A stretch of DNA of 60,782 nt from Bacteroidales bacterium (GCA_035389045.1 DAOORA010000002.1:78957-139738); one strand, 5' to 3'. Positions 1 through 28,900 are shown, counted from the first letter of the stretch. The notes: generated from the sequence alone by a model not told the origin. Made by a program: numbers and translations.

Positions 1-2
1 TC

Positions 3-4400: not shown

Positions 4401-7400
4401 GGTTCAATAAATGTTGTTACACCGGCATCGTGAGGTATTTGTGGCAATAATACAACGGAATAATCTTCCGTTTCTCCATAGGTATAAGTCCCGCAAGGGT
4501 TTGCCACATCATTGTAGTCGAGCACAACGCGCAATCTGGTCGGGACATTGGTAACAATACCGGTGGTCGGTACGGTGAACACTCCGCTTACCGTAGTGGC
4601 CGTTGAGGAAGTAGGCGCTGAGAATATTTTTTCCTGAGGAAGGTCAAACATTCCGTTGCGGTTATAATCAAGATAAACATTGGCTAGCGACACACCAAAG
4701 GAGGTGCTCGGGTTGCATTGCGAAACAGAAATGGGGTAAGTCATTCCGGCCTGTAATATTCCGGGGCCAACAGATGTATAATCAGTATAGGTCGCAACGC
4801 AGGTTGGATTGGAATAAACCGGCAGAGGATTTCCGTTATTGATATTACTTACCGTAACATTACTGATATCGCAGTAAGATGTTGATGTGGCTCCCGAAAC
4901 ACAATACACCAGCGGGTTGTTTACTACGGTTTTATGGACCGTATCATTAATCAGGGTGGTATCGCACGACAAACCGGTATATACGGCAAGGTCATAGGTA
5001 GTTATGGCGGACATGTCGGCTGTTGCGGCAAAGGTATACAAGAGGGTGTCGTTTTGCGCTATCGGGCCGGGGATCGTTTCAGTAACAGGGGCGCCGCCGT
5101 TTAAAGAATAGTGAATTGGAATATTAACAGCAGGGCTCGTGCCAAAGTTCTTTAAGCGCACAGAAACCGCTTCGCCGGCGGAAAGCTCAATACCACTGTT
5201 AGGTGTATGTATAGCCTGGACACTCACATCGCAGGACGGTATTCCGGTAACAAATACCGTATCGGCCACCCTGGGACTTGCACAGGCCAACCCGCCGCTA
5301 ATAACCCAGTCATAAAAATAGTAATACAAATCGTTGCGGGGCGTATTTGTTGGTGCTGCGGTCAAGGTACTTGTGTTGATGGACAATACTCCCGGAACGA
5401 CATACGGATACCCGTAGTTGCCTCCCGGAGCTGCGGCTGAAGGCTCAAACAATAAACCGGATATCCCGGTATATCCCGGACGCATCTTCATGTTGGTGCC
5501 CGGCAGGATATCAAAGTCAAGATTGATTAGGTGTGCAACGGGCGTTCCCACAGGACTTCCGGTAACATTTGCAGTGGTGGTGTGCAGTACTGTTCCTGAA
5601 GAGTTAATTACATCAATAGTTACCGTGCCGCTGGCGCCGGTCGCACTCACAGGGTAAACCGTCACCGATTTCAGCGTAAATGCAGATAATGCATCGAAAA
5701 CCAGCCCGTAATTTGTGGTTCCGGCTCCACTAATTGCTGTAGGATAAGGCATGGCCATACCGGTATGCAGTGTGGAGGTCCCCGCCATGGCTTCTGTATA
5801 ATAAACAGTATTTCCGTAAAGTACCGGTGTGGTATAAGTAAGTCCTGTATATATTGCTGTGCCGCCTAAAGGGACATCATACCAAAAAACTGATTCAGCG
5901 GATACGGCATTTATTGTGGCCGAAGTACCGTAAGGAATAGTGATATTGCTCACGACCGGTGCGGGAGGTGTATAGTTTAGTGTCACTGTATCATGGATGG
6001 TGTCGTTGGCATAAAATGTGTCTCCCGCGAGTTCGATATAGGACAGAATGTTGTAGACTGAATCCTGTACGGTATGACTAAGCCCGGTAATAAAAGGAGT
6101 GGCAAATGTATACAGCAGCGTGTCGCCGGGCAAAATAGTGCCGGTAACAGGTTCAGCAACCACTGTACCGCCATTGACAGCATACTTTGCCATAAGGCCG
6201 CCATTAATAGTATTTACCCCGTTATTTCTAATCTTTATGGAAATAGTTTCTGTAACATCGCTGCATGGATCGAGCGGCGCAGGCATGGAAACCACCGAGG
6301 CTTCATTGGTCATTAATTCGACATGGGCAATAACCGGTATGCGCTCGCTGGGACAACCTTCGCCGCTTACTTTCCAGTTATAGAAGAAGTAATAGTATTG
6401 AGGATAACCGGTAAAACTGTTTCCATTGATAGAAATTACATTGGGTATAACGTACGGATAGCTGGCTCCGGTGGTATTGCGGTAAAACCCGCCGCTCACG
6501 CCAAATTTCACACGATATTCTGTGCCAAAAGGCACATTAAAATTTACCGGAACCACTTCTCTATCCCCTGCCTGGGCTGTGGTAACACCACTGAATGTTT
6601 GCAACACAGTGCCGCCGCTGTTCAGCAGTTGGATGGTAAATGCCGCCCCGGGGGCCGTGGATGGAAACACATCTATGCTATGAATAGTAATACCTCCAGG
6701 TTTTAATACATCAAAATACAAATAGTAGGTTGTATTGGAATAACTACTTGATGTCCCTATTGAATAATCATATGGCCCAACATACTGCGGAATGGAGCCG
6801 GCCATGGCTTCCGCATAATACGTGGTATCTGCATATAATGCGGGAGTATTGAATATGTGACCCTGATGAATAGGTACAGCGGATATGCTGTCGGCAAACC
6901 AATTTACACTATCGGGAGAAATTGCCTGAAGTATGGCCGGTTGTCCGTATGCTACCGTGTCGCCAATAACAACAGGTGCTAAAGGAACATGAAGTGAATT
7001 TATTTGTTTGATGACCGTATCATTAATGCTGACCGGATCGTTGAGAAGATTGATCCAGGTTTGTATAGTAAAGACAGAGTCCTGAGTTGTTACAGCCAGA
7101 TTGGCAGGAGTCGAAAAAATATAGTCCAATGTATCGCCAGTTGCAATAGGTGCAGTAACAGGTTCGGTTATCGTTGTGCCGCCGGCTATTTTATAAGAAG
7201 CGTTGAGATTGCCATTGATGGCTGCTCCGCCGGTGTTTTTTATGTGTATGGTAACGGGTTCGGCATTGCTCAGTCCGCAACCAGATTCGGGTGTTTCCAT
7301 CGATAGCACTGCGGCTTCCTGATTGGGAATTAACTTGATGTTAATATCGTCAATATAGGCATAATACATACTGCCAACGGTACCCGACCACCCGAAATAA

Positions 7401-10400
7401 TAGACGCCGCTTGCAGGAGCAACAAACTGTGATACCGATTGTATATGAACCGTATTGACGAAATTTACCAGAGTCGCCAATGTGGTTGTCATGGCGGCAG
7501 GGCTGGCAGCATTGCCGTATTTCAGCGTCAGTGTCTGGGGGTAGGTTGCGCTGTATGATCTATACCAGAAACTAAGAGAATACGTGTCGCCGGCTTCCAG
7601 GTAAAAACATCTCGAAAACAACCAGTCTTCTCCGGTATTGGAAGTGTTATTGTAAAATCTCGCGGAATAGGTGCCTGTATTTGAATAGGTGGAGCTTGAG
7701 TAGGGCAAGTCCCATTTATAACTGGCCTCACCGCCGGTATTGACCACCGACCACTGGCTATAATCTTCAGTGGGTTCAAAACCCATATTGTATTCTGAGG
7801 TGTAGAAATCCCAGCCATTAGACACTGCATAATCAGCAATCGTATCATTGAGCGGGTTCAGATCACCGGTCAACACCACATAGAAGTCAAAGGTATAGTT
7901 GGCGATGGCCGACAAATCGGCGCTTGTTGGGAAGGTATATACTACAGCTGAATCCGGCAGGAGTGAACCGCTGAAAACTCCTAAAACCGGAGTGCCGTTA
8001 TTTAGTTTGTAGTAGATATTTGCATTTGTAATTGTTGTTCCGCCAAAGTTTTTAATCCGAACAGAAACATTCTCGGCATTTCCCAGGCCGCACGAAACAT
8101 GAACCGGAGAAATAACTTCCAAAATGCCTAAGTCTACCGAAAGCGGTGCGAATTCATCAGCACCGATATCGGGCGTGGCAGCATCTCTCGGTTCTCCGTC
8201 AATATCATCTGTAATCCCTGCAATTGGAGTGGCATAGCCATTTAATGAGGAAGTAAAAGTATGAAGATCCGCGGGTGAAATAAAATTCGGATTTACTGAT
8301 ACGGAATTGCTGTCTTTTGATGATGCAATTTGCCATGCGGCAAGGGTAGCCTGGTTAGCGCCCCAGTATCCAAGGTTGGTGCCTGTTGAATATAAGTCAT
8401 TAAATTCAGAAGTATTAACATTGGCTACCGTGGAAACATAAAAAGCCATACCGCTGGCGTTAGTGCCGGTATATGCAAAAATATTGTTTTTATAATTATG
8501 ATAGGGATAGGTGGTGCCTATCATATACATAGCACGGGCTGTTGTATAATCTGTATAAACATTTATACTGTTATAATAAAAATTCTGGAATGTACTGTAT
8601 CCGTTATAAATACCATAAGTTGCGGTGGTTCCGCCAATACTGACAAAGTTATTGGCAGTCAGACCCTCTTGTCCTGAAGCTCCGTCGCAATATGAAATAT
8701 AAATTCCATATCCGCCACTCGTCAATGAAATTATGTTTTTTAATATTTTTAATGCATTATCGCAATAATAGGTATAAATACCATAAAAAGCTGCCGTGGA
8801 ATTGGTTGTTATTATATTGCCGCTAATGACGGGGGCAGCCTGATAACCGAGACGAATAGCATATTGGTACTGATTAAGGAATGTGTTATTAGTAATCGTT
8901 GTTTTGTTTTCAAGCGATGTACTGCTTCCTCCATATAAATATATGCCATAGGATCCGTTGATAATCTCATTGTTATTAATTACCGATAAGGAATCAAGTC
9001 CTGCCCCCGAATAGATAAGGGCTGTGTTTGTCGAACTGGCCGTTGCCGCCGGCGCTGTGACGATATTGCCGTCAAACTGATTATCGATGGCATTGGCAGC
9101 TAATTCAATAACTCTCGTATATGCCGTAGTGGCCGAGCTTTGCAAGGTCATGTTTTTAAACCTGAGATGGTCAGCGCCATCGAGTTTTATCACATAATTG
9201 GTCGTCGTATTGGTAGTATCCTGCAATACCACATCGGTATTAACTCCTGTCAACGATTGGAAAGTAATGGTATTGATGGCTGAAGCCCCCGGAATCTCTG
9301 AAATTACTAAGCGTTCATTATACATTCCTGATTGTACATTAAAAGTTACAGGACCACTTATACCGCATGTTTGCATGGCTGTCAGTGCATCCGAAAATGT
9401 TGTAAAATCACCTGTTGGGCCAATGGCATAAATTCCGTTCAAAATATTGCTGCATGCATAAAATGAGATGCTTGCTGTATCATTTGCAGTATTCTCATCG
9501 GTGCTGTCATTGGGTAATTCTGTCCACGCCCTGACAGTATGATTACCTGTAGTGCTCACATTGACATTACCCATAGTAATGACGCCCGAAACTACATCCT
9601 GCAAAAGCACTCCCGTCCAGTTATAGGAAGGTGTTTGCAATGCACCGTCCACTTCCCAGGCTATCGTTACTTTTTTCAGGGAGTCTGCAGCAAAATTTTT
9701 AAAATTCAAGGTTACCGGATAATTGGTATTGGTCAGCAGGGTTCCTGTGGGCCCGAGTATTTGTGTTACCCCTGCATCAAAAGTATAATTGGTTGCGACC
9801 AGCCCAATTTTTATGTTCGGGCGATACTTATATGAGGACGTTGTTGCGTTCAACACAGTGGACGCAGTGATCGTTGACCCTACATAAGCAATAATTTTGT
9901 CAGCCGTCCCGCTGGAATATTTCCAGTCAAATTTGTCGGTCGTCCAAGGCTGTGTTCCGGAATATCCTGCTCTGGTGGCGATTTCAAGACTACCTCCGGT
10001 ATAAATAAAAGGTGTCTGGAGAGTAAATTCAACCCATCCGCTTACCGGAGGTATTTGTTGGGCAGTTGAAGAATATACAAGGGTATGGGATGTCAGAATA
10101 CTGCCCCATGTGGTGGTGGTGGGCAGCGGGGGAACGTTGGAGGTGTTCGCCATATAAATCGAAAAAGTTATCGGGTTAGAGTTTGAGGCGCCGGCACCGT
10201 TTTTATCAAAGGATAATGTGGTTATCGTAGCTCCGGGTAATATTCCCGCGGCAGCTAATTCTGCTGCGGTATAAATAATGTTTGAAATGGAGTTGGCGGT
10301 GGTAGAGGTACTGCTGAAACGATAAAGAGGGCAATAAAGCGTATTGCCCGGAACTAAATTTTCGCTCCCGATAAGAATCTGGCTGGGCCCTTGTTTTATA

Positions 10401-11308
10401 TAAAACCACAGATCAGGGCCGTTGACGGTATTCTGTAAGGCAGAATTATCCGAAGCAAATACATGGTAATCTATTCTGTTGTTATAGGTATGACTGGGAA
10501 TCGTGCCCTTATAAGTACTGTCGGAAACCCATACCATAGGAATGTACTGATTGGCACCGTTGTTTAGCTGATAAACGATATAAGCTGTATCAATACCGGA
10601 AACATCCGTAATGGTAGCATGAATATCAAAAGGCCCGGTATTGAGCACCGTATCCTGGATGATGGGGGCCTTCATGGTAATTTTCGGAGGTAATAATTCG
10701 GATATACCCCCGACCACTAAAATATCGTCGAGGTACCAGCCATGGCAAACATCATTGCTGACATTGCCGCGTAAGGCAAACCGTATCTGCACATTGCTGC
10801 TGTTCGCTGCCAGAGCAGTGATATCAAACATTTCGTACCTCCACCAGTTTTGCTGGGGCTTGATGGTGTCATTGGCGGCTACCCAGTCAACAGGATATGT
10901 GGCAGCACAGAATCGGTACGACTGGTTTAAGAACTGAGAATTGCCCGGATTGATATATTGCGTGGTGAGTTTTATCCACGGACCTCCATTTACAGATATT
11001 TCTACCTTGGCCGTATCAAATATTTCCACCTTGCAGATATGTGCAAATTTCAACAATACATTGTTCGACCCAACAGTGCTGAACGGCTGTGTGGTCAGAT
11101 ATGAGATGCTGTTGACCGGAGTTTTAAGCGAGTCGCACTGGGTTCCTGAATAGTATAATCGCGTATTGATGGCAAAGGTAGGTGAACCCGTCGCTGTAAC
11201 ACTGTCCGGACCACTTCCGGGATCAAAATTCTCATGAAAATGAATTGTTTGGGCAATAGCTAATGTTGATATTGCAAATAACAACATTACAAGTAGTAGT
11301 TTTTTCAT
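1433..11308 (-). CDS. Giant T9SS-secreted multidomain surface protein, paralog 1 (3291 aa; adhesin-like)
   Basis: Sec signal peptide ending AIA-Q; repeated CARDB/Ig-like units (DAGV...IKNFG...NDT); parallel beta-helix (~8150-9430) ending PDIGADEF; cleaved-adhesin/choice-of-anchor-J-like module (MGFE...DWLFSRCF...YYFGW...IDDINI); two split Ig-like domains (WY/WF...TP.LY..T.YYAEA...C.S.R); GEVED (YGETEDY); two MAM/jelly-roll-like modules; type A CTD (LYQNVPNPA...GIYFY...TKRMVIAR). Confidence 0.9.
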   Translation of the reverse strand: MKKLLLVMLLFAISTLAIAQTIHFHENFDPGSGPDSVTATGSPTFAINTRLYYSGTQCDSLKTPVNSISYLTTQPFSTVGSNNVLLKFAHICKVEIFDTAKVEISVNGGPWIKLTTQYINPGNSQFLNQSYRFCAATYPVDWVAANDTIKPQQNWWRYEMFDITALAANSSNVQIRFALRGNVSNDVCHGWYLDDILVVGGISELLPPKITMKAPIIQDTVLNTGPFDIHATITDVSGIDTAYIVYQLNNGANQYIPMVWVSDSTYKGTIPSHTYNNRIDYHVFASDNSALQNTVNGPDLWFYIKQGPSQILIGSENLVPGNTLYCPLYRFSSTSTTANSISNIIYTAAELAAAGILPGATITTLSFDKNGAGASNSNPITFSIYMANTSNVPPLPTTTTWGSILTSHTLVYSSTAQQIPPVSGWVEFTLQTPFIYTGGSLEIATRAGYSGTQPWTTDKFDWKYSSGTADKIIAYVGSTITASTVLNATTSSYKYRPNIKIGLVATNYTFDAGVTQILGPTGTLLTNTNYPVTLNFKNFAADSLKKVTIAWEVDGALQTPSYNWTGVLLQDVVSGVITMGNVNVSTTGNHTVRAWTELPNDSTDENTANDTASISFYACSNILNGIYAIGPTGDFTTFSDALTAMQTCGISGPVTFNVQSGMYNERLVISEIPGASAINTITFQSLTGVNTDVVLQDTTNTTTNYVIKLDGADHLRFKNMTLQSSATTAYTRVIELAANAIDNQFDGNIVTAPAATASSTNTALIYSGAGLDSLSVINNNEIINGSYGIYLYGGSSTSLENKTTITNNTFLNQYQYAIRLGYQAAPVISGNIITTNSTAAFYGIYTYYCDNALKILKNIISLTSGGYGIYISYCDGASGQEGLTANNFVSIGGTTATYGIYNGYSTFQNFYYNSINVYTDYTTARAMYMIGTTYPYHNYKNNIFAYTGTNASGMAFYVSTVANVNTSEFNDLYSTGTNLGYWGANQATLAAWQIASSKDSNSVSVNPNFISPADLHTFTSSLNGYATPIAGITDDIDGEPRDAATPDIGADEFAPLSVDLGILEVISPVHVSCGLGNAENVSVRIKNFGGTTITNANIYYKLNNGTPVLGVFSGSLLPDSAVVYTFPTSADLSAIANYTFDFYVVLTGDLNPLNDTIADYAVSNGWDFYTSEYNMGFEPTEDYSQWSVVNTGGEASYKWDLPYSSSTYSNTGTYSARFYNNTSNTGEDWLFSRCFYLEAGDTYSLSFWYRSYSATYPQTLTLKYGNAASPAAMTTTLATLVNFVNTVHIQSVSQFVAPASGVYYFGWSGTVGSMYYAYIDDINIKLIPNQEAAVLSMETPESGCGLSNAEPVTIHIKNTGGAAINGNLNASYKIAGGTTITEPVTAPIATGDTLDYIFSTPANLAVTTQDSVFTIQTWINLLNDPVSINDTVIKQINSLHVPLAPVVIGDTVAYGQPAILQAISPDSVNWFADSISAVPIHQGHIFNTPALYADTTYYAEAMAGSIPQYVGPYDYSIGTSSSYSNTTYYLYFDVLKPGGITIHSIDVFPSTAPGAAFTIQLLNSGGTVLQTFSGVTTAQAGDREVVPVNFNVPFGTEYRVKFGVSGGFYRNTTGASYPYVIPNVISINGNSFTGYPQYYYFFYNWKVSGEGCPSERIPVIAHVELMTNEASVVSMPAPLDPCSDVTETISIKIRNNGVNTINGGLMAKYAVNGGTVVAEPVTGTILPGDTLLYTFATPFITGLSHTVQDSVYNILSYIELAGDTFYANDTIHDTVTLNYTPPAPVVSNITIPYGTSATINAVSAESVFWYDVPLGGTAIYTGLTYTTPVLYGNTVYYTEAMAGTSTLHTGMAMPYPTAISGAGTTNYGLVFDALSAFTLKSVTVYPVSATGASGTVTIDVINSSGTVLHTTTANVTGSPVGTPVAHLINLDFDILPGTNMKMRPGYTGISGLLFEPSAAAPGGNYGYPYVVPGVLSINTSTLTAAPTNTPRNDLYYYFYDWVISGGLACASPRVADTVFVTGIPSCDVSVQAIHTPNSGIELSAGEAVSVRLKNFGTSPAVNIPIHYSLNGGAPVTETIPGPIAQNDTLLYTFAATADMSAITTYDLAVYTGLSCDTTLINDTVHKTVVNNPLVYCVSGATSTSYCDISNVTVSNINNGNPLPVYSNPTCVATYTDYTSVGPGILQAGMTYPISVSQCNPSTSFGVSLANVYLDYNRNGMFDLPQEKIFSAPTSSTATTVSGVFTVPTTGIVTNVPTRLRVVLDYNDVANPCGTYTYGETEDYSVVLLPQIPHDAGVTTFIEPAALLDEGVSAPVEVIVKNYGLDTITNASNLSIAYSYGGGPIQSITWAGGDILPMDTVIAVLPNLTVIPNDQPLCAWTILAGDSNTMNDSACMTLSGTPQIDAAVTAILQPGTSLQEGASQSVQVTLENFGADTLTSMNLVYTLDGVTQATQPWTGSLLPGATTNVTFSQTFVVPAAGFTICAYVSLATDANHINDTLCMNFYGLFTSVLPYYDDFDGANVNWLAGPVSNGSVWELGTPNYGSTNTAHSTPNAWDVNLNSAYTNSVTTYLYTQNFDFSTVINAKMKFWLNYNLETGYDGLRVEYTTNGGTTWQPLGILNDTNAVNWYNDDVINSNGPGWTNTSSGWKQSEYKLTILNNVPLVRFRFVFFTNASGINSGASVDDFAITIPFPQDAGVQAIKTPVLQAPAGSSVVVKSNIKNFGSDTLYSIPVSYRLGLTGTPVTQTWTGTLYPEDTTTLTFSIPVAIPAGAFNLYSYTGLSVDGDHFNDTAVNHITGVPVYHVPYNDDYEGLVTWFGTGTTNLWEWGVPAATLIDSAYSPTHAWVTNLDGDYINSAVEYLYSPLFMFTGVDSAYLEFWHWYDTEINYDGCQVQYAINNGTWTALGTLADPNGVNWYNSTASTFPCWSGSSNGYVYSRYRLTAIPSIVNATTPVQFRFKFFSDVSGVNEGWAIDNFAITAPPIPQDAGVTAILQPNAATQTGSSVTVQVTIKNHGTGNLTTVPVRYVINGGAVTAETWTGNLAPGATTNYTFAAPYVSPGITYDLCAFTKATGDIYTFNDTTCASFNTTPAPHDVGVSAMISPSDTTVYNQSYPVTVYIKNFGTEPETSIPVVFSRNGVQVGAGVWTGTLNGGDSVLYTFTTQNVSPQGNYQLCAKTMLAGDSDPANDQSCKYLYGMTGIESYDYSGFVLYQNVPNPAVNITDIVFNIPERNRVRFEMYDLLGKAIRSEDLDAVKGENKIELDASVIPDGIYFYAVYYKGEKQTKRMVIAR

Positions 11309-11669: not shown

Positions 11670-11676
11670 TGAAATT

Positions 11677-11715: not shown

Positions 11716-11773
11716 AACGGGAGCTTATTCATAATACTTCTAACACAACATGCACCGGATTAATCAGTTGATA

Positions 11774-20800: not shown

Positions 20801-22462
20801 CATCAGCACGCCGGTCCAGTCATATGGGGTTTGCAGAACGCCGTCCAGTTTCCATGCTATAGTAACTTTTTTCAAAGTATCAACAGCGTAGTTTTTAAAG
20901 TTCAGTGTTACAGGGTAATTTACTCCCGTATTGAGCAAACCCGTCGGGGTAAGTATTTGATATACCCCGGCATCCTGTGAAAAATTTGCAACAGGAAATG
21001 TAAATTTGATGTTGGGCCTGATTTTAGAATTTCCATCATACAGCGGAGGTGTTTCGCTATCGGCATAACCATATACGACAAGCACATCAGAACCGGAACT
21101 GTAATCCGTTCTGTACACATTATACTGATCGCCGGAAGCACAGTAATTACCATTATCTCCCCATAATACCTCGACAATCAGATTGTCGGTGCCATTATAT
21201 GAAAAATCATTAATATCAAAGGTGTGCCAGCCCGTAGTGGCCATCTGATAGTAATCTGCACTTGAAAACACTGTGGTGGCCGAGGTCATATCTTCATAAG
21301 CCGTACCTAATGTGGTCAATGACGTTGGCTTTATTTTTATCGTGAAATTCAGCAAATGCCGGTCGAGAGGTTCTGCGGTTATGTAACTTAAATTGAACGC
21401 CAGATGAGTTATAGCTCCCGATTTATTGATCTCGGAAGCCTTGTACAGCATCTGAGATCTGTTATTTTCATAATAATTGTCAAAAGGGTAATAATTGTTC
21501 GTAGTGACTGTTCCTGTGCCAATAACAACTTCAGGCGGCCCCTGTTTGATAAAGAACCAGTAGTCGCTGCTGACAACAGAATTATGATTGGGAGCATTAT
21601 CAAAAGCAAATACCTTGTAATCTATCCTGTTTTGATAAGAATAACTTGGGATAGTGCCGGTATAAGTACTGTCCGAAACCCATAACATGGGAATGTACTG
21701 GTTTGCTCCTCCGTTTAATTTATATTCAATATAAGCCGTATCGATACCCGAAGCATCCTTAATGTATGCGCTTACATTAAAAGGCCCTGTGGTGTATATG
21801 GTATCCTGAAAAACAGGAGGTTTCATAGTTAGTTTGGGAGGAAAAAGTTCAGAAACTGCGCCAATGACATTAATATCATCAATATACCAGCCATGATTTC
21901 CCTGGCTGCCGTCGCCGTTGTCTATAAGTGTAAAACGAACCCTGACGTTGCTGGCATTTCCGGCAATGGCAGAAATATCAAACATTTCGTTTTTCCACCA
22001 GCTCTGCTGGGGTTTTTCCGTAGGGGTACCCGGCAGCCAAACCAAAGGATAAGTACCTGCCGAGAAATGATACGTCTGTGCAACAAATTGCGATCCGGGC
22101 TGGTTGATATACTGCGTGGTAAGTTTTATCCACGGGCCGCCGTTGACCGAAACCTCCACCTTTGCCGTATCCTGCAATTGTACTTTACAGATATGGGAAA
22201 AATTCAGATAAACAACCGGATAGCCAACGGTACTGAAGGATTGCGTGGTCAGATAGGAAGTGTCCCCAACAGCAGCATAGCTGGAGTCGCATTGTGTTCC
22301 CGAATGAAACAAACGGGCGTTGATCGCAAACAATGGATTCCCGCTTGCGGTCACACTGTCTGCGTTACTTGCCGGTTCAAAGTTTTCGTGAAAAACAACA
22401 GTCTGCGCATTAGTCATAGTCGCCGTAATTAGCAACATCAATAAAAATAAAAACTTTTTCAT
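11828..22462 (-). CDS. Giant T9SS-secreted multidomain surface protein, paralog 2 (3544 aa; adhesin-like)
   Basis: Same domain order as paralog 1, plus one extra CARDB + cleaved-adhesin-like unit. Signal peptide ending TNA-Q; GEVED (YGETEDY); CTD LYQNVPNPA...TKRMVIAR. Confidence 0.9.
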   Translation of the reverse strand: MKKFLFLLMLLITATMTNAQTVVFHENFEPASNADSVTASGNPLFAINARLFHSGTQCDSSYAAVGDTSYLTTQSFSTVGYPVVYLNFSHICKVQLQDTAKVEVSVNGGPWIKLTTQYINQPGSQFVAQTYHFSAGTYPLVWLPGTPTEKPQQSWWKNEMFDISAIAGNASNVRVRFTLIDNGDGSQGNHGWYIDDINVIGAVSELFPPKLTMKPPVFQDTIYTTGPFNVSAYIKDASGIDTAYIEYKLNGGANQYIPMLWVSDSTYTGTIPSYSYQNRIDYKVFAFDNAPNHNSVVSSDYWFFIKQGPPEVVIGTGTVTTNNYYPFDNYYENNRSQMLYKASEINKSGAITHLAFNLSYITAEPLDRHLLNFTIKIKPTSLTTLGTAYEDMTSATTVFSSADYYQMATTGWHTFDINDFSYNGTDNLIVEVLWGDNGNYCASGDQYNVYRTDYSSGSDVLVVYGYADSETPPLYDGNSKIRPNIKFTFPVANFSQDAGVYQILTPTGLLNTGVNYPVTLNFKNYAVDTLKKVTIAWKLDGVLQTPYDWTGVLMQDVVSTTLNMGNINVSTTGLHTIRAWTELPNDSVDQNQSNDTVSLSFYACASSLSGPYTIGPSGADFPNFSTALITMQNCHVSGPVIFNVQPGTYTEQLNFPEIAGASDTNTITFQSSTGVNTDVTLRYATTSSGNYVVKLDGADHFRFKNMTLRSTGKAYACVLAINGNAINNQFDGNRIIGKDTALNSVNIALVNSASGTTSIDSLSVFNNNTFTGGSYGIYFYGGSSTALENKTSITNNTFTNQYLSGIYLGYHNAPVISGNTITTNSGYTPFNGIYTYYCDNNMQILKNKIVMANGGYGIQVYYCDGVAGKPGLIANNAISIGGSTTTYGIYDNYSSYQNIYYNSVNVYTNYSTARAMYLYGGTTYLNHRFKNNIFAYTGANTSGVSFYVGTPAMVSASDYNDLFSTGTNLGYWSALRANLAAWKTASAKDTNSVSAQPSFFSPTDLHTLSSAINAHATPITGITGDIEGNPRNATQPDIGAYEFDIPARNLGITAVTQPLSSCGLTANETLMIKIKNTGLGAIDTTEVYYILDNGTPVHETVYDTILPDSTYTYTFAQQLDLSATGAHTLKVYIHAIGDLIPLDDTATRVIENGYDFNSGPYTMGFEASENYSAWSVFSENGGTYTYQIPYVGYAHTGSNSARFYNSSSNTLTDWMFSRCFTLEAGKRYQISFWYRAESASYPQTAALKFGNSATPAGMTNTLLTLSGFTNTTYQQVVCQVAPSVTGVYYFGWQASSPPSIYYHFIDDINISIVPDHDGACVSIIAPVTGCSLTNAEPVTVRFKNTGAMPIDTTDLYYVMNNGTPVHETLYYTIQPDSAYSYTFAQTVDMSVYGDYTFDAYIKVPGDTLPANDTVNNYLVNTGFDLSLNNYTMGFEASEDVSLWSKLDVNGDNTTWTYPYSSTTYSRTGSNSARYNYNSSNTADDWLFSRCFPLMAGSTYKIEFWYRSQNTTDIESMELKLGTSATPAAMTTMLVSLPSFAVTTYQKASAQFIVPATGSYYFGWHAYSIANAYNIYIDDINISYVPEQEAALLSIVSPQTGCGLSNAEPVTLQIKNTGSDTIQGNFSGYYVFNGGSVISELITDTIVPGDTIDFSFSQTVDLQVLASDSIFPLTTWISLAGDPFQTNDTLSAMINSMHVPNPPVTINDTVSFGTSATLQAISPDSVYWYDVPVGGVVVGTGHTFVTPPLFNMGVYYAEVSTMSGSDSLNTVFNGSTTCAGGNMFDLEPLGSNLSVTGFNVRPNVAGAFTVGVYTKQGSYSGSEITPAAWTLLGTYNASSTATGAMTYVDVDDFLVLSGQVTGVYLYFNATYSSLTSVTTYTNTDLKLTSGVGLCSLFGDINVPRGFNGTVLYDKSGCPSARVPDTAFLSLYPKEASIVSVTSPVAGCNDGVANISVLVSNNGMDTLTGNLTVNYTVNGSPVVSEIIPGTIYPGDTVPYTFTSPLTTGLSQANLDTTFNLVTYIELAGDPYPANDTLHSLFDMLYTPPAPAVANITIPYATTGTIHAVSSDSVSWFDVPTGGTAISNSAYFTTPVLYNTTVYYAEAVSGSLDQHVGPFDNTIGGGGAVDYSYYLIFDVLSSIVNIKGVYVYPGASGDVVLYIANSSGTVLTTITYPVTTPNVKTYIPVDYDLPAGTNYRMGFNSASPGVSLYRNTDGAAYPYTLPGVISITGNSFTGYPQYYYYFYDWVVGSGGSGCTSTRVADTVFVSGVPACDVSVLDIYEPNTGIELSTTEPVTVKIRNYGSAPAVKVPIHYTVNGGTPVNDTVQGPVASNDTAVFTFAVTADLSVIGTHVIEVYTDMACDATHVNDTAQKTVICQPLAYCTSTSTSPTSYGDIGNVTLSNINNGIAVPVTNNASAINGYSDFTASLPAVQLNSANTYPISVSIISHTTFSSTYVKTFIDYNRDGVLDPTAELVFGALATATAPTVTGNITIPVTAVIGLPLRMRVVAEQTTVASNVEPCGNYLYGETEDYTVMISPQIPHDAGAITVIEPLATETEGESVPVRVIIKNFGSDTIHNTSNMMVAYSHNGGAVQSLIWNGGDILPLATDTVVLPDITVTANANTICARTQLPGDIYAFNDTVCKNFHGTPLYDAGVIAFLQPANQLVSNTVETVSVIFRNFGADTLTSLNLAYSVNGVVQATQPWTGSLLPNGTDTVTFTQTFTVPSLGFDLCAYTSLTTDPNHGNDTLCITPFGVISSTLPYYDNFDGPVVYWSQTNATSTSITKWELGQPGYGTTNSVHSAPNAWDVNLDTNYFVSANTMLYTQYFDFSSAVNARMKFWINYNVESGYDGTRIDYTTDNGVTWNVLGIYNDPQGLNWYNDETIVSSGNQPGWTGTSSGWKYCEYKLGILNNVPMVRFRFVFTSDGSVNYDGVSVDDFAITLPYPQDAGVQLIKTPAVQAPAGSSAVVKARIKNFGTDTLHSIPVSYRLGLTGTPVTQTWTGTLNPEDTTTLTFTAPMTIPAGAFDLYAYTGLSADGDHVNDTAVNHITGVPFYNVPYSDDYEGLVTWFGAGTSNLWEWGVPAATLIDSAYSPTHAWVTNLDGDYINSAIEYLYSPLFMFTGVDSAYLEFWHWYDTETNYDGGQVEYSINNGTWTTLGTLADPNGVNWYNSTASGFPCWAGSSNGYVYSKYRLTAIPNIVNATTPVQFRFKFFSDVSGVNEGWAIDNFAITAPPIPQDAGVIAILQPNAATQTGSPVTVQVTIKNFGTANLTSFPVRYVVNNGAVTSETWTGSLTPGNTVNYTFSSTYASPATTYNLCAFTKATGDIYTFNDTICASFGTTPAPHDVGISAILAPGATTIFGQADTVKVRIKNYGLGVETSIPLVYLRNSVQVGAGVWTGTLNGGDSVDYAFTTLNVSPIGNYSLCAKTTLTGDANSLNDQVCIYPYGQVGIESYDYSGFVLYQNVPNPAGNLTDIVFYVPESDRARFEMYDVLGKAIRAEDMDVVKGENRINLNAAMLPDGIYFYSVSYQGEKQTKRMVIAR

Positions 22463-22501
22463 AACCTATTTTTTTAATTATTATTTCTGTTAATAGTCAC
22501 A

Positions 22502-22509
22502 CAAAAATA
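22502..22509 (-). promoter_or_regulatory. Candidate -7 promoter box (TATTTTTG) for giant gene 2
   Basis: TAnnTTTG match about 40 nt upstream of the ATG, followed by an A-rich leader. Confidence 0.5.
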
Positions 22510-22953: not shown

Positions 22954-25900
22954 TTACCTTACCACGATCATCCTCCTGGTGAGCTTTTTGTTTGAATATT
23001 CCACCGAATAAAAATACACTCCGGAAGGAACATCGCGGATATCCAAATCCATCCTGTTCTCTCCCCGCACTGCATCAAACTCTTTTCTCATCAGCACTTG
23101 TCCGAAAATATCGGAAAGTTCAAAGCCGGCAGAACCGGTCGTCGGGACATAAAACAATATTAATGTGCGGTCCATAGCCGGATTGGGAATGTTTTGCAAC
23201 AGTTCAAAATGCGTGTAGTCGTAGTCTTCTATTCCTGTTCCTATAGGATAAATACATATCTGATCATTAAGAGGATCAGCATCACCTGTCAATATTGTTT
23301 TTGCACAAATGTTATAGTTTCCGGAAGGAGATATAAAGGTGGTGGCAAAAGTATAATCCGCAGAATCTCCCGCAGCTATGGTTCCGGCGTAAGTTCCGGC
23401 ACCGGTCTGGACAAAATTGCGGAAATATACTACTGAAATCCCCGATTGTGGCGCTGTTCCATAATTTTGGATCCGGACTGACACCGTAACGGGATCTCCG
23501 GGTGTGGTGACCGTTCCCGGCGTAAGGATCTTTGAAATTCCCAGGTCATTAGCCGCTGGTGAGGTGGTAATGGTAGTGCACAGGGTATCGTTGGCCCAAT
23601 ATATATCTCCGTTTCTCCTCGTAAAGGCACAGAACGAATAGGCGGTTCCTGGGGAAGTGTAGGGTGTGGTAAACGTATAATTCACTGTCTGCCCTGGCTG
23701 CAGGGCACCATACCATGTTTCAGCCACGACGGCACCACCGTTGACAAAATAACGCACAGGAACTTTCTGCAAGGTATCCGTTCCATAATTCCGTATTACT
23801 ACCTGTACCGTAACAGAACTTCCCGTCATGACCGGTGAAGCCGGATGGATGATCCCGGAAATACCAGCATCCTTTGGAATTGCCGGAGCTGTTATCGCAA
23901 AATCATCAATGGCCCAACCGTCATAATTACATACAGAGGTATTTGAATTGAACTTATACCGGAAACGGACAGGTACTGTAGCATTAATAATTGCCGGAAC
24001 AGAAGTCAGGCGATACTTCGAATATACATAGCCCGATGAATTCCCTGACCAGCAAGGCAGACCACCCACCAATGCGTTGTACCAGTTCACCCCCTGCGGA
24101 TCTGCCTGAGAGCCCAGGATCACCCATGATGTCCCGTTATTAACGGTATATTCTATAAGTCCGTAATCACTGCCGCTCTGTGTGTGATACCAATGCCAAA
24201 ATTCCAGGTAAGCGCTGTCAACTCCGGTAAAATAGAACCATGGTGAATACAGGTAACTCGTCGCATTATTTATATAATTACCGTCAATATTTGTTTTCCA
24301 GGCATGTGCAGGACTATGGGCTACATTTATTGGTGAAGAGGAAGGCGCTCCGTATTCCCATAGGTTGGGGACACCATAACTCACCCAGTAATTATCTGCC
24401 TCAAGACTATCACTGTATGGAACGAAATATTTGGGGACACCCATGATCCGGGCACGGCAGGTATCGTTAAGGTGGTCACCGTCACCGGTAAGCTGCGTGT
24501 AGGCATAAATCGTGAACTCGCCGGCAGGCACAGTGAACGGTGTTGCAATGGTGACCATGGCCGAATCGTTCGACAACAGTACGCCTGACCAGTTAAATGT
24601 GATTACGGGCCCTGCCGCGTTTATTTTATAGGCTATCGGTACACTTTGTAATATACTGGTACCATAATTACGCAGACGAACTTTTAACTGAACTGATGAA
24701 CCGGCCTGTGCCATAACTTTGGGGTCACTCACGGCCTCCACGCCAACATCTTTAAGAGTAGGTTTATAAATTGCAAAGTTATCTATCGAAAGACCAACGC
24801 CATTGGTAGAAGCATCGGATGAAAACACAAAGCGGAACCTTACGACAGGTATATTATTTAATACTGACAACTTATAATAACATGACCTCCATACTAAGGT
24901 ATTCCCTGACCATCCGGGTTTGCTGCTGGATACCAGGGATGCCGTATTATACCAGTTCGACCCGTTGGGATCGCTGACTATGCCCAGCACATTCCAGGTG
25001 CTTCCCGTATCTGTAGTGTATTCTATTCTGAATCCATCAGCGCCGTTTTGTGAATTCAGATTAAACCAGAACTTCATCCTCATATCCACAGCATTGGAAA
25101 AATCAAAGTTCTGGGTATAGAGCATTGAATTGGCGCTGTTGCCATAGGGTTCACTCAGGTTGATGTCCCATGAACTCCATGGGGAAAAGGCGCTGTTGGT
25201 GGTTCCGTATGAAGGCTGGCCCAACTCCCATACTGATCCTGCTGAAGATACGGCCATCCAGTTCACAATGCCATCATCAAAATTGTCATAGTAAGGCAAC
25301 GCACTGGTAAACACCCCATAAGAGTTCTGATAAAGGGTATCGTTGATGTGGTTTGAATCTGCAGGGAAAGAAGTGTATGCACAGATCGTGAAACCTGCCG
25401 AAGGCACAGCATAGGTCTGTGTGAAAGTAATAGTATCATAGGAATTGGGCAGAAGTGAACCGGTCCAGGGCTGTGTGGCCTGCAAAACTCCGTTCAGCTT
25501 ATAACACAGGTTTATCGAAGTAATAGCGCCTGCGCCAAAGTTTTTCATGACCACCCTGACCGGGGATAAAGATCCGGAAACAGATTGCGAACCGGGTTCC
25601 AGTATTGCTACAATTCCGGCATCATGCAAAGGCGTCCCGGCAAATGTTTTACAATAGGTATCATTAAATGTATTGCTGTCGCCTGCAAGTTGCGTGTATG
25701 CGCACAGCGTGTTCAGATTGGGCATGACGATGAGGTTGGGTAGTGTTGCGGTATCGGATTGAAGCGGAGGAATATCACCTCCGTTCCAGATTGCCGTTTG
25801 CGGCGCCTGCCCGTTATGGGTGAAAGCGACCACCATATTCGAAGTGTTCCGGATCGTATCAGTACCGAAGTTCCTCACAATAACTTTCACCGGTATCACG

Positions 25901-28900
25901 GCTGCTTCACTTTCCACAGCCGATGGCTGAATAATTCCAATAACGCCGGCATCATGGGGGATTTGCGGGGAAATGAACAGAAAATAATCTTCGGTTTCAC
26001 CGTAGGAATAGGTTCCGCAGGGATTAGCGGTTCCCGCCCTGTCCATGACAATCCTCATCCTGGTGTTCATACCGGTCACCACGCCCGTCACAGGTATTGA
26101 TATGGTACCTGATACAGTGGGGCTTGTCGAGGAAATGGTAACTCCCGAAAATGCCATTTCGGCAGGGGTATCAAAAACCCCGTTCCTGTTATAGTCAATG
26201 TAAGCTTTTACGCCGGTAGGATAAAAAGTATTGCCGCTTTCGATCTGTGAAACCGAGAACTGGTAATTCGAGCCTACTGTGACCGGCGTGGCCGGCAAGC
26301 TGGTGTAATCGGTGTAATTATGCGTTACCGTTGTATTGCCAAGTACCGGTAAGGGATTACCATTGTTAAGGGTTCCAAAGGTAACATTTCCGATATTTTC
26401 ATACAGGTAAAGCGAATTGGAAGCACAGTATGGTATCGGGCTGCAGACAACGTCTTTATGTAAAGTATCATTAATATGAGTCAAATCACAGGACAGGGTT
26501 GTGTACACTGAAATGTTATAAGTTCCATACGCCGATAAGTCAGCATGTGTGGCAAACGTAAACAATGCGGTATCATTGGAAGCTACGGGACCCGGGATGA
26601 CCTCTGTTACCACAGCACCACCGTTTATCGAATAATGTACCGGAATATTACTTGCGGGAGCTGTCCCGTAATTTTTAACCTTAACCGTGATAACTTCATC
26701 ATCGGTGAGGTCTATGGCGGAGTTGGGAGCATAAATATTCACTACGCTCATGTCACAGGCAGGAACGCCCGTAACAAATACAGTATCCGGCATCCGTGCG
26801 CTGGCGCATCCCGAGCCGGAACCTTTTACGACTACCGAATCAATATACCATCCGTCGCTGGCAACAGAACCGTCGGTATAAAAAACGAAGGCGATACGCA
26901 TTGAATCCGCACCCGCCGTGTTGATAGTGCCGGCATGTGACTGATAGGGCGCGGTATTTGAATAGGAATAGTAGGTACCGCTGGAACATGAGTGTGCCAT
27001 GGGTTCATAACTTATGGAATACGAGCCTGTATAAGATCCGGTGGTCAGTGTGAGAGGTGTCCATTGGTTATTATTTAGCTTATACATAACATAACCGTGG
27101 TCACAACAGGATTCTGTGGTATATCTGTGCCGGTATTTCAGCGTTACCGTGGAGGCGCCGGACAAATTAATCACTGGGGATTTAAGCACCTGACTGGACG
27201 TGGTTCCCACATCCTGTGCAAAAGCTGCACCGGTACCGCCGTCACTCGCCCAGACCCAGGTGGTTGAAAATCCGCATGATGCGGTTGATGTCCATCCTTC
27301 AAGGCCGGAATTGAATGTCCAGTAGCTGGTGCCTCCGGTGGCATAGGCCTCAGCATAATAGACAGTATTATTATAAATCAGTGGCGTAACATACGTAGAT
27401 GTATTTGCCAAAGGAGTACCGCCCGTGGCAACATCATACCATCGAATGGAATCTGCTGAAACAGCATGTAATGTGGCTTGAGTGGCATAGGGAACTGTAA
27501 CATTGTTCACTACCGGCACAGCGGGGGTATAAAGCAATGTCAGGGATTCCGTTGTGGTGTCATTTTGTAAAAAGGAATCGCCGGCCAGCACAACATATGC
27601 CGTAATATTATATACGGAATCCTGATTCGATTGTGAGAGGCCTGTCATGAAAGGTGCCGTAAAAGTAAAAGTTGTTGTATCTCCCGGTAAAATGGTGTTT
27701 GTCACAGGCTGGGTTTGCGGGCTGCCTCCATTAATGGTGTAAGCTGCTGTCAGATTCCCGTTAATAGTGTTTAATCCGTTGTTTCTGATTTTTATGGAAA
27801 TATTTTCAGACCCTCCAACACAACCATCCACAGGCGACACAATGGAAATAGCCGAAGCATCATAAGGATTCAGCTGAACGAAGGCGGTATCAGGTATTCT
27901 CGGACTGGCACATCCGCCCATTCCTCCGCTGACGGTAACTTCATCAATAAACCAGCCGGTGGAGGCAACTGAACCATCCGAAGTGAATACAAAAGCAAGC
28001 TGTATCGTTGACGCCCCCCCATTAGAAATATTACCGGAACTTGTGATATAGGCCGACTGTGTTCCCGCATAACAGCTTTTTGTATTGGAAACACAAGAAT
28101 TCAGCGGATCATAATCAATGTTCTGAGAATTGGTATACGTATTTATGCCGGGGACAAATGTTGTCCATGCCCCGTTGTCGAGCCGGTAGGCCATATAACC
28201 CTCGTCACAACAACTTTCCGTACCATAACGGTGCCGGAATGAAATCGAAATATTTGCCGCCCCGGAGATCATGACTGACGGAGAAGTGACCAGTTGATAT
28301 GCATTGACGCCGGGATCGCTGGCAAATAAAGCGCCTGCTCCTGCATCACTGGCCCACGACCAGTTGTAGGCGGATGAACACGGGTTTTGAACGGTCCATC
28401 CCTGCAAGGTATTATCAAAAGTCCACGTGGTCGTTCCGCCCGCCGATAAAGCCTGTGCATAATAAACCGTATTGACATACAAAGCCGGGGTTGTATAATA
28501 AGCCCCGGTGCAAAGATATGTACCTCCTGAAGGGACATCATACCAATAGATCATATCCCCGGAAATGGCGTGCATGGTCGCAGTACCGCCAAAAACCGTC
28601 GTATCGTTTATTGTTACCGGGCTGGCAGGCACATGCGAAGAAGCAATGTCCTTGGTAAGTGTATCGTTATAGTGGAATGGGTCGTTGACCAAAGATATCC
28701 ATACCTTGAGCGGAAAAACAGAATCCTGCGAAACGACATGGGCATCAGCTGTCTGAGAAAATGAAAATGCCAGCGTATCATTCGGGGCTATTGTTCCTGT
28801 CACGGCCTGCGACACCACCGGGCCGTTTTTAAAAGTATAATAGGCAGTTAAATTACCATTGATAGTCGCAGCGCCTGTATTTTGGATAAGAATATCAACG

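Follow-up and report, generated by a model that had tools for sequence, protein, structure and literature searches.

Split Ig_7 domains holding guest domains in three tandem giant T9SS cargo proteins of a sludge Bacteroidales bacterium

Three tandem genes of a Bacteroidales bacterium from sludge specify giant T9SS cargo proteins, each with two Ig_7 domains that are split by an insert. Quite probably the split domains are pedestals for exchangeable guest heads, with no dedicated diversifying machinery involved. The genes lie in a 60,782 nt stretch of DNA, here called the window. Scanning the three translated ORFs with the regular expression W[YF]...TP.[LI]...[TV]YY[AT][EQ][AV], and from there to the next [GA]C.S.R, yielded exactly six slots, with inserts of 149, 167, 156, 149, 178 and 178 aa (Table 1), and within the giants the [GA]C.S.R motif occurs only at these six sites. 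The initial annotation of this DNA had proposed two slots in each giant, and the scan places them within a few bases of where it had them.

Ig_7 (PF19081) scores above its cut-off of 27.3 bits in all three giants (56.2–58.6 bits, two stretches in each), the N-parts giving 36–59 bits and single slots 36.5 and 38.9 bits. The best stretches end at position 66–69 of the 84 in the Pfam profile, as expected where a domain is broken off ahead of its last strand. That strand (profile positions ~70–84, GC.S.R..V.V) is present, though not contiguous, being displaced by 149–178 aa. In ordinary, CHU_C associated Ig_7 domains, in contrast, the last two strands are joined by a short loop, as the initial annotation had supposed; it is ~6–10 aa at the same place in intact repeats of this genome, and 4–6 aa in eight orthologous slots that are empty. 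The flanks of slot 1 are alike in the three giants (HVP..P..I.DT...) though they hold inserts of types A, B and C, and the flanks of slot 2 are also alike (YTP..P.V.N.T.PY). For gene 3 slot 2, the matches with P0004 (76% identity) and P0005 (40%) cover 98–100% of the slot, and the third full-coverage match is P0021, a gene 1-like protein with type A.

Table 1. Genes, slots and slot parts in the window
Feature	Position	Strand	Details
Gene 1 (P0001, 3291 aa)	1433..11308	(-)	giant T9SS cargo protein; slots A,A
Gene 1 slot 1	6296..6991	(-)	regex; row of alignment A2
Gene 1 slot 1, Ig_7 N-part	6806-6991		aa 1440-1501
Gene 1 slot 1, type A insert	6359-6805		149 aa
Gene 1 slot 1, last Ig_7 strand	6296-6358	(-)	GCPSERIPV...
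Gene 1 slot 2	5225..5974	(-)	regex; Pfam Ig_7 at 1781-1842, profile 1-66/84
Gene 1 slot 2, Ig_7 N-part	5789-5974		aa 1779-1840
Gene 1 slot 2, type A insert	5288-5788		167 aa
Gene 1 slot 2, last strand	5225-5287	(-)	ACASPRVADTVFV
Gene 2 (P0002, 3544 aa)	11828..22462	(-)	giant T9SS cargo protein; slots B,A
Gene 2 slot 1	16658..17374	(-)	regex; AF2 model mb4171c44f0cd
Gene 2 slot 1, Ig_7 N-part	17189-17374		aa 1697-1758
Gene 2 slot 1, type B insert	16721-17188		156 aa
Gene 2 slot 1, last strand	16658-16720	(-)	GCPSARVPDTAFLSL
Gene 2 slot 2	15641..16336	(-)	regex; AF2 model m52a6ea63b45e
Gene 2 slot 2, Ig_7 N-part	16151-16336		aa 2043-2104
Gene 2 slot 2, type A insert	15704-16150		149 aa
Gene 2 slot 2, last strand	15641-15703	(-)	GCTSTRVADTVFV
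Gene 3 (P0003, 3316 aa)	22954..32904	(-)	giant T9SS cargo protein; slots C,C
Gene 3 slot 1	27853..28635	(-)	regex; insert InhA-like_MAM below cut-off
Gene 3 slot 1, Ig_7 N-part	28450-28635		aa 1424-1485
Gene 3 slot 1, type C insert	27916-28449		178 aa
Gene 3 slot 1, last strand	27853-27915	(-)	GCASPRIPDTAFV
Gene 3 slot 2	26749..27531	(-)	regex
Gene 3 slot 2, Ig_7 N-part	27346-27531		aa 1792-1853
Gene 3 slot 2, type C insert	26812-27345		178 aa
Gene 3 slot 2, last strand	26749-26811	(-)	GCASARMPDTVFV

The two gene 2 slots were modelled with AF2 (pLDDT 90.9 for slot 1 and 92.5 for slot 2). The Ig part of slot 1 (model 1..234) aligns by VIA over 81 residues with 2063..2146 of Aureispira GhpA (9flp_A), a contiguous 84-residue Ig-like domain, at Z 12.4 and rmsd 1.4, and that of slot 2 (model 1..227) does so over 81 residues of the same range at Z 12.7 and rmsd 1.3. 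This is the nearest solved fold to the split Ig_7 (rmsd 1.3–1.4 Å, 21–27% identity). The inserts align separately, that of slot 1 (model 67..218) to the PHR domain 3no8 at Z 10.9 and that of slot 2 (model 67..209) to PHR domains at Z 11.9, 11.3 and 11.2 (VIA). As the initial annotation had envisaged, the aligned ranges on these predicted models of two slots support the deduction that the Ig-like host, though interrupted, is still a single domain made by both flanks, and that the insert emerges from the hairpin preceding the last strand. The type C slots, whose flanks are homologous, would be nested likewise.

BLASTP of the six inserts reproduces their earlier grouping. Type A is in both gene 1 slots and gene 2 slot 2 (34–46% identity, with 46% between gene 1 slot 1 and gene 2 slot 2), type B in gene 2 slot 1, and type C in both gene 3 slots (46%); across types, no match among the six is better than E 0.2. 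The further supposition that these are three unrelated families does not survive. The three types appear to have two folds, a PHR-like beta-sandwich for A and B and, by sequence evidence only, a MAM-like fold for C. The A and B inserts have the same ranked structural neighbours (VIA, two models), and they align with PHR domains (3no8, 3gbw, 3hwj) at Z 9.1–11.9 over 129–137 residues and rmsd 2.9–3.9 (VIA-align), the best Foldseek match for B being 3no8_A (E 1.9e-4). The neighbours also include the lectin-like domain of Cwp84 (Z 9.5 and 11.0, VIA) and phage baseplate and tail-tip proteins. Sequence identity with PHR is 10–16%, and the profile-profile signal between A and B is weak (hhalign probability 37%, P 3.5e-4). 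No Pfam family matches the insert at E 0.1 or better in any of 24 A-slot and 28 B-slot members, and none of the inserts in the window matches the PHR profile (PF08005) with an E of 10 or less; an Atlas feature score of 0.80 between insert and PHR cluster is a lead only. Set beside the PHR domains of BTBD2 and MYCBP2/PAM-Highwire-RPM-1, the A and B inserts are predicted to share the beta-sandwich fold, but they lack sequence membership and are bacterial, extracellular and nested. On a tentative reading, just short of probable, these two guests, the commonest in smaller proteins, would represent a branch of the PHR-fold superfamily that is bacterial and not yet described.

The type C inserts of gene 3 slots 1 and 2 reach 21.8 and 19.8 bits with InhA-like MAM (PF20773; E 1.4e-4 and 5.9e-4), below its cut-off of 26.9. 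A profile built on the C inserts picks up, in its second round, MAM-like domains that lie in line in these same proteins (E 8e-59 to 1e-8), while among PDB sequences it has no match. Type B is not only a nested guest but is also met free-standing, or in tandem, with no Ig flanks (81 domains in 66 of 184 proteins), and a further kind, D, is nested in other giants and is an in-line domain in genes 2 and 3 (tblastn, 34% and 53%). The free-standing B, in-line D and kinship of C to in-line MAM-like domains suggest that the guests are autonomous domains.

Across the family, slot content is varied. The 51 homologous giants in which both slots were typed show 26 different pairings of slot content, made up of nine insert kinds and empty loops. 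Guests confirmed by Pfam right after a truncated Ig_7 are LTD, DUF7402, Laminin_G_3, ALK_LTK_GRD and GEVED, with closing strands found for the last three; ALK_LTK_GRD, GEVED and CUB-like guests occur in other Ig_7 loops. On a scaffold tree of 53 rows (191 columns, quick search, support under 80% at 17 of 50 inner branches) the slot labels change 21 and 23 times. However, at least 28 changes were needed in 200 of 200 shuffles of the labels; the labels are clustered, so that vertical inheritance accounts for most of the content. The notion of the Ig loop as a reusable socket, put forward in the initial annotation, holds across the family, and these comparisons support exchange of guest content independently of scaffold.

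Individual replacements can be seen among relatives. Between L006 and L020, which come from two genomes of the window's genus, a cassette of ~560 nts is replaced (LTD versus C), beside which nt identity is 94.6% on one side and 89.3% on the other. At the protein level, conservation extends as far as ...TTVYYAETR and is restored from C.S.R.PDTVFVTGVPACDV on. Three proteins that are orthologs or paralogs (P0286, P0277 and P0285) are 81–86% identical outside the slots and ~20% identical inside slots of different kind, the boundaries being YYVEA.. and ..GGC. Such clean cassette replacements span scaffolds that are 81–95% identical. Within the window, a tract of ~900 nts is 84–95% nt identical between genes 1 and 2 against a background of 60–66%, which argues that recombination does act at this locus. 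From the breakpoints it is reasonable to infer exchange via recombination in the conserved flanks, the swapping that the initial annotation had proposed. What does not extend to this strain is ongoing swapping. The three paralogs are old (~64–73% nt identity), nt similarity of their slot flanks is no higher than elsewhere, and slot content, which differs between L006 and L020, is unchanged in close relatives of gene 1 (P0021, P0276) and gene 3 (P0004, P0275, P0280), so no recent or ongoing swap is seen in this lineage.

Might the cell itself swap cassettes, by dedicated recombination from a donor store as in pilin-type antigenic variation, shufflons or DGRs? The three tandem paralogs do differ in slot content, replacement boundaries are precise, and the gene conversion tract between genes 1 and 2 means that exchange between tandem copies happens. 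Nevertheless a programmed system is highly improbable. Pfam assigned none of the window's 19 other ORFs to a recombinase, invertase or reverse transcriptase family, and the neighbours of the giants are housekeeping genes. Nor are there silent cassettes in the genome: tblastn with 12 insert representatives gave copies only inside ORFs of at least 650 aa, with kinds B and C absent elsewhere in the 4.46-Mb assembly and type A-like copies each in a long intact ORF. The age of the paralogs also counts against it, as does a sequencing run with near-identical sequence, which gave one contig, identical over 14 kb (though this is possibly the source run, and rare variants would be invisible). The initial annotation's undescribed diversification system thus falls away as a mechanism, there being no machinery nearby and the display principle being already published (PMC12077191), and evolutionary cassette exchange is the preferred reading. 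Within evolutionary exchange, the swapped entity could instead be an ancient, indivisible composite of Ig_7 and guest (or a CARDB-Ig unit), the loop then being no socket. Composites of Ig_7 with A and with B are indeed old and widespread as units: 52 matches in 49 proteins from the A-slot search and 43 matches from the B-slot search span nearly the whole slot, and Ig_7 with A is also present in eight other proteins of this genome. In P0277 slot 1 the divergent tract reaches upstream by ~300 aa and takes in the Ig N-part, and at high scaffold identity the flanks of same-kind pairs are 5–9 points more alike (the pairs are not independent), so some exchanged tracts include flank. However, Ig-flank identity follows scaffold identity, not insert kind, in every bin, the likeness of slot 1 and of slot 2 flanks across the three giants crosses insert types, the L006/L020 replacement and slot 2 of the trio have their boundaries at the loop, and the same orthologous Ig also occurs empty. 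Shuffling of whole units is accordingly quite unlikely as the general explanation.

A different doubt concerns what the guests do. Under the preferred reading of pedestals with exchangeable heads, they are most likely ligand-binding heads of an adhesin, probably glycan- or surface-binding, by analogy. They could instead brace or oligomerise the fibre, act as shield or decoy for phage or protease, or be catalytic; the PHR-like, D and E domains are without known ligand, and the functional part of the giants could be their parallel beta-helix region (NCBIfam para_beta_helix and choice_anchor_Q matches in gene 2, Pfam Beta_helix in relatives). This is unlikely. LamG, MAM-like, LTD and DUF7402 families are generally associated with binding, and many guest kinds come from families of this sort. 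The structural neighbours of A and B, with a lectin-like domain and the phage proteins among them, point the same way, though a shared fold of itself shows no function. The binding function, like the selective reason for exchange, we infer; a high turnover of guests while the stalk stays constant is in keeping with specificity determinants, and guests on the split domains of RTX adhesins have been shown, in the available text of PMC12077191, to bind glycans and cells.

Export is indicated by the giants' C-terminal end. The T9SS type A CTD (TIGR04183/PF18962) is above cut-off in all three, TIGR04183 giving 34–38 bits against 23 (38.2 in gene 1, whose Pfam families are CARDB, Ig_7, GEVED, InhA-like_MAM and Por_Secre_tail). 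The N-terminal signal peptide was assessed by eye on the translations. The type IX secretion system would carry the giants to the cell surface, where they are presumably displayed. The chain would build the Ig domain minus its last strand, exit at the hairpin after the YYAEA strand, form the guest as a complete beta-sandwich domain of 150–180 aa with its two ends side by side, and then return with GC.S.R.P.T.F.V to finish the Ig domain, the pedestal that would keep the guest off the stalk. In the course of evolution one guest cassette would be exchanged for another, the breakpoints lying at the loop. The most plausible route is homologous recombination in the conserved scaffold flanking the guest, with paralogs or strains as the partners; family members would therefore carry different head combinations.

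As far as the available text of PMC12077191 goes (it cites Graham et al. 2024, Proteins 92:933), the principle of split-domain display is already published for RTX adhesins. There an Ig-like stalk domain is split by a complete guest with adjacent N and C termini, the guests project off the fibre axis, and CBM, beta-roll and vWFA guests share the design, which is that of the giants also. The giants differ in their T9SS type A CTD, in their host family (Pfam Ig_7) and phylum (Bacteroidota), and in having no RTX family by Pfam or NCBIfam. Their split precedes the last strand; for the AhLap RTX-like construct, that text describes a chain that leaves after the first. Orthologous loops that are empty or hold nine kinds, with cassette replacement among close relatives, are a feature of the giants not seen for RTX adhesins in the same text. 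The Ig_7/T9SS version with its combinatorial occupancy was not found in the published literature.

Phage tail fibres and receptor-binding proteins, and polymorphic adhesins or toxins, combine a conserved scaffold with exchangeable specificity modules, and have breakpoints at domain boundaries. In the giants, by comparison, the module is inside a host hairpin and not at the end of a chain, which requires both junctions to be in frame and fold-compatible. It is possible, if at present a tentative proposal just short of probable, that the hairpin before the last Ig_7 strand is a general plug-in socket, and an evolutionarily active one, in the T9SS surface proteins of Bacteroidota, holding one of at least nine guest kinds or none, with in-frame cassettes being exchanged among congeneric strains and tandem paralogs on short time scales. 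If so, populations would gain, on a stalk that stays constant, a combinatorial repertoire of adhesin heads, an internal-loop counterpart of the swapping of tail-fibre tips.

The three giant genes g1, g2 and g3 (table), which lie in tandem, are co-oriented and are paralogs of one collinear architecture, 50–70% identical over most of their length. CARDB, GEVED, InhA-like MAM and Ig_7 (PF19081) domains are present in each product (Pfam/NCBIfam), and a T9SS type A sorting domain is at the C-terminus in 3/3 (TIGR04183, 34–38 bits, cut-off 23). The feature considered here is the slot, an Ig_7 domain split before its last strand by an inserted domain, the guest. There are two slots in each giant, with contents A,A in g1, B,A in g2 and C,C in g3. 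Activated sludge and anaerobic digester are the labels of the public run records that contain this DNA.

Coordinates of the giant genes and other features (window positions; contig:positions for the window's own genome, G000)
Feature	Location	Strand	Basis or remark
g1 giant ORF, 3291 aa	1433-11308	-	ORF/translation
g2 giant ORF, 3544 aa	11828-22462	-	ORF/translation
g3 giant ORF, 3316 aa	22954-32904	-	ORF/translation
High-identity tract, g1 copy	2276-3176		~900 nt; g1 aa ~2716-3014
High-identity tract, g2 copy	~12680-13580		
Extra g2 segment, ~250 aa	~18440-19280		aa ~1060-1340
In-line D domain, g2	21002-21535		
In-line D domain, g3	31465-31962		
964-aa protein	44055-46949	-	sole Pfam match, Sacsin-type domain (PF25794, 54.5 bits)
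T9SS type A cargo protein	42816-43937	-	
T9SS type A cargo protein	57369-58826	-	
T9SS type A cargo protein	58834-60675	-	
Ig_7 split by A	C13:79394-82357		
Ig_7 split by A	C13:82361-86362		
Ig_7 split by A	C15:28000-32967		
Ig_7 split by A	C15:49489-54315		
Ig_7 split by A	C3:80087-82636		
Ig_7 split by A	C38:26289-30029		
Ig_7 split by A	C14:9712-13218		
Ig_7 split by A	C1:77629-82038		

A regular-expression search of g1–g3 finds exactly six N-side motifs of the form W[YF]...TP.[LI]...[TV]YY[AT][EQ][AV], each followed after 149–178 aa by [GA]C.S.R, a motif confined to these six places within the three proteins. The six slots of the initial annotation were thereby placed correctly to within a few bases, and BLASTP among the inserts gives the same three classes that it had drawn, with no cross-class match. 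The Ig_7 Pfam matches in the slots end at profile position 66–69 of 84; uninterrupted Ig_7 repeats at other sites of the genome reach position 79–84, and their last two strands are joined by a short loop. Generic regular-expression and HMM scans for split Ig_7 domains were too strict or too noisy, and these domains were located downstream of truncated Pfam matches and by anchor-based slot extraction.

Alignments of 28 B-type and 24 A-type slots were built, and AF2 models of g2 slot 1 (B) and g2 slot 2 (A) have pLDDT values of 90.9 and 92.5. For both models the best VIA-align match in the full library is the same Ig-like domain, 84 contiguous residues (9flp_A 2063-2146) of GhpA, the grappling-hook protein of Aureispira. 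It covers 81 model residues, which span 1..234 in the B model (Z 12.4, rmsd 1.4 Å) and 1..227 in the A model (Z 12.7, rmsd 1.3 Å). Dozens more Ig or FN3 domains align across the same split range in both models, and insert residues ~67–218 (B) or 67–209 (A) align apart from the Ig part. From these aligned ranges, the chain in the models leaves the Ig domain ahead of the final strand and comes back to complete it, so that in both predicted structures the flanks do fold into one Ig domain, as had been asked. The type C slots have flanks homologous to those of the two that were modelled.

How the slots are filled in relatives was followed from an anchor, the inter-slot segment at g2 aa 1915-2104, with which both slots were extracted from 54 giant homologs, 51 of them typed at both slots. 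(P0005 was left out of trees and counts, its anchor lying one repeat unit too far upstream; this shift causes one artefactual slot change in the analysis of C-insert lineages between slots.) On BLAST clustering the inserts fall into nine kinds: C, D, LTD, A, B, E, F (= DUF7402), Laminin_G_3 and a second MAM-like kind (MAM2). LTD is PF00932, above cut-off, D and E have no Pfam family, and Pfam places the named kinds straight after Ig_7 matches truncated at profile position ~65–67. Eight slots are empty, with a loop of 4–6 aa in place of a guest (e.g. YYAQA[VTPG]GCTS), and in one of these Pfam reads Ig_7 through positions 1–82 of 84. With nine guest kinds or none at the same two loops, in 26 distinct (slot 1, slot 2) combinations among 51 giants, the proposal that the Ig loop is a reused socket is borne out. 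Such giants are present in 11 of 17 genomes of the window's genus, and C, B, D, LTD, A, E and MAM2 all occur in their slots, in many different orders. In some giants at least three [CARDB + split Ig_7] units follow one another (L005/L022 in G014, L006 in G016, L020 in G002 and L010/L023 in G015, with contents such as C,B,D, B,C,LTD and B,C,C), so socket number varies and not content alone. Four such giants stand in tandem on contig C7 of G002.

Neither the split nor its guests are restricted to the giants. Eight further G000 proteins (850–1656 aa; table) have one Ig_7 each, split by a type A guest, usually just ahead of PKD-like and T9SS tail/CTD sequence as judged by eye from the translations. 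A search with the A slot among longer proteins gave 88 proteins, and across the proteins collected 52 matches in 49 proteins span nearly the whole slot; many of these are presumably peptidases or repeat proteins, to go by their precomputed Pfam accessions. The exhaustive B-slot search gave 1720 proteins (E ≤ 0.001), with 43 matches (among proteins collected after the search) that run unbroken through nearly all of the slot at ~32–50% identity. B also occurs without Ig flanks, single or in tandem, and ahead of rather than inside Ig_7; it is therefore an autonomous domain. The free-standing or tandem B arrays (P0113, P0126, P0146, P0177, P0068, P0076, P0132 and P0180, some with proline-rich linkers) have the motifs GGN.MFD... 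and ...R.[FW]NG.[IV].Y. In g2 and g3, kind D stands in line as an ordinary domain close to the N-terminus; in other giants it is nested in Ig_7 loops. ALK_LTK_GRD and GEVED, both Pfam-confirmed, are in Ig_7 hairpins of fetched proteins in which the closing strands are seen; what we take from its motifs to be a CUB-like guest is similarly placed, again with the closing strand seen. The ALK/LTK glycine-rich domain (PF12810, above cut-off) is nested at 843-1063 of P0056 and 1427-1649 of P0094, which are bacterial T9SS/CHU_C-type giants, and P0182 nests GEVED likewise.

The three insert types of g1–g3 had been held to be unrelated, and for A and B this did not survive structural comparison. In VIA-align the A and B inserts share their structural neighbours, which are ranked alike: the PHR domains of BTBD2 and MYCBP2 (3no8, 3hwj, 3gbw; Z 9.1–11.9 over ~130–137 residues), the lectin-like domain of Cwp84 (Z 9.5 and 11.0), and phage and virus surface proteins. 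Foldseek matches the B model to 3no8_A (E 1.9e-4); for the A model it has no PDB match at E 0.001 or better, and the wide VIA-align search was the informative one. Insert-only hhalign of A against B gives a weak signal (probability 37%, P 3.5e-4). Given the shared neighbours and this profile signal, A and B are best read, on the models, as belonging to a single PHR-like beta-sandwich superfamily, in which they form two distant branches. A slot-level hhalign value of 99.7% for A against B was rejected as a sign of insert kinship, being driven by the shared Ig flanks. Against Pfam, the 24 A and 28 B slot sequences show nothing besides Ig_7 at E 0.1 or better, and no Pfam family was found for free-standing B-only proteins, the B domains of P0113, P0126, P0146 and P0180 having been scanned; the nearest ESM Atlas clusters of the inserts are unnamed. 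A and B are thus two abundant domain families without a model in the Pfam copy searched. The C inserts have weak InhA-like MAM matches, below cut-off, and in its second round a C-insert profile reaches in-line MAM-like domains of the same giants. Against PDB sequences, phmmer gave 0 matches for type C and a profile search one, at E 0.12, with nothing relevant. The three guest types would accordingly be of two folds, PHR-like for A and B and, from sequence evidence, MAM-like for C.

That guests are exchanged was approached from a quick IQ-TREE scaffold tree of the anchor (53 rows, 191 columns). It needs at least 21 changes at slot 1 and at least 23 at slot 2, where the minimum in 200 shuffles was 28; slot content is therefore largely inherited, though the number of slot-change events is still very large. 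Three proteins that are 81–86% identical over ~3000 columns have the slot contents (C,E), (LTD,E) and (C,LTD), and their identity drops to ~20% exactly between YYVEA.. and ..GGC. The loci L006 and L020, of two genomes of the window's genus, have 94.6% (2072 nt) and 89.3% (918 nt) nucleotide identity on either side of ~560 nt without similarity, which encode LTD at one of the two loci and C at the second; the protein sequence is kept through ...TTVYYAETR and then again from C.S.R.PDTVFVTGVPACDV. L010 and L011 show a like replacement, LTD vs B. Ig-flank identity tracks scaffold identity in every bin, whether guest kinds are the same or different (the pairs being non-independent), and C inserts of the slot 1 lineage are found in slot 2 of other proteins. 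Together these observations support exchange of the guest alone, with junctions at the loop. In at least one case, slot 1 of P0277, the exchanged tract takes in upstream sequence too. The mechanism would be recombination in the flanks.

Recombination between the tandem copies g1 and g2 does occur, to judge from a tract of ~900 nt with 84–95% nucleotide identity against a background of 60–66% (83–97% identical at the protein level). The tract covers a MAM-like/CARDB part of the stalk and has the look of a recent gene conversion from one tandem copy to another. The larger size of g2 is due to an extra segment absent from g1 and g3, by eye in translation what looks like a duplicated CARDB + MAM-like unit. 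The N-terminal variable region (g1 aa ~296–530) is 25–43% identical among the paralogs; the in-line D copies of g2 and g3 have the motif YPF..Y..SR.Q.IY.A.E...RPNI.F, the D query has no tblastn match in g1, and the variable region of g1 may carry another domain.

Exchange over the history of the family is to be distinguished from a programmed system; the initial annotation had suspected an undescribed diversification system. No recombinase or reverse transcriptase was found by Pfam among the 19 other window ORFs, which are housekeeping or unrelated (Tex, RelA/SpoT, Fur, PurA, an LptD-like protein, an RND efflux system and others). Across the 4.46-Mb assembly, insert-like sequences are without exception parts of ORFs of at least 650 aa, and kinds B and C are confined to g2 and g3. 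DNA identity among the three paralogs is ~64–73%, their flanks being no more conserved than elsewhere. Slot occupancy was compared across relatives, as had been proposed: content differs on the 81–86% identical scaffolds, and the close relatives recovered for g1 (P0021, P0276) are both A,A and those for g3 (P0004, P0275, P0280) all C,C. No close relative of g2 with (B,A) content was found among the recovered proteins. Two of eight public runs contain half or more of the sampled words. Contigs, and contigs only, were compared from four runs: X1, possibly the source run, has a contig identical over 14 kb and X2 short identical contigs, and the joints seen are short cross-matches, most of them with a single further contig that is probably a paralog. 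With no recombinase or reverse transcriptase among the window ORFs, long intact ORFs, old paralogs and content kept in the relatives recovered for g1 and g3, neither a programmed system nor recent swapping is indicated for this strain. Among the other window ORFs, the 964-aa protein has a Sacsin-type domain, which is unusual in bacteria, and one of the three additional T9SS cargo proteins has SBBP beta-propeller repeats.

Budding of domains from split domains has a precedent. According to PMC12077191, a CBM, a beta-roll and a vWFA domain do so in the T1SS RTX adhesin AhLap, its CBM construct binds fucosylated glycans and cells, and Graham et al. 2024 is cited there for the general split-domain rule. 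On that account ligand-binding domains project at RTX split domains, and the design of the Ig_7 giants is the same; by analogy their guests may be adhesion heads. The giants, however, are T9SS proteins of Bacteroidota, whereas RTX adhesins are T1SS proteins of another phylum, and Ig_7 is split before its last strand where the RTX-type split, as described there, is after the first. What the Ig_7 family adds to that design is a record of slots both empty and filled, and of cassettes being replaced. A literature search found no paper naming PF19081; the split-domain papers found are on RTX adhesins, none mentioning Bacteroidota, and a search on domain insertion, type IX secretion and Ig-like domains found nothing relevant. 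The split-domain principle is already published; the Ig_7/T9SS socket, the breadth of guests, the direct replacements and the two unmodelled PHR-like families are worthwhile additions.

The split-domain rule for locating adhesin heads is thereby widened from T1SS RTX adhesins to T9SS proteins, and families A and B are defined, two abundant domains for which the Pfam copy searched has no model. The family is a natural experiment in domain insertion, in which one host loop accepts at least nine folds and an empty state; replacements are datable between congeneric genomes and are informative on multidomain protein evolution and on the engineering of display scaffolds. If the guests are binding heads, slot content points to the stretch of each 3,300-residue protein that should be expressed and assayed for ligands, and the unannotated giants of sludge and digester Bacteroidales would become experimentally tractable.
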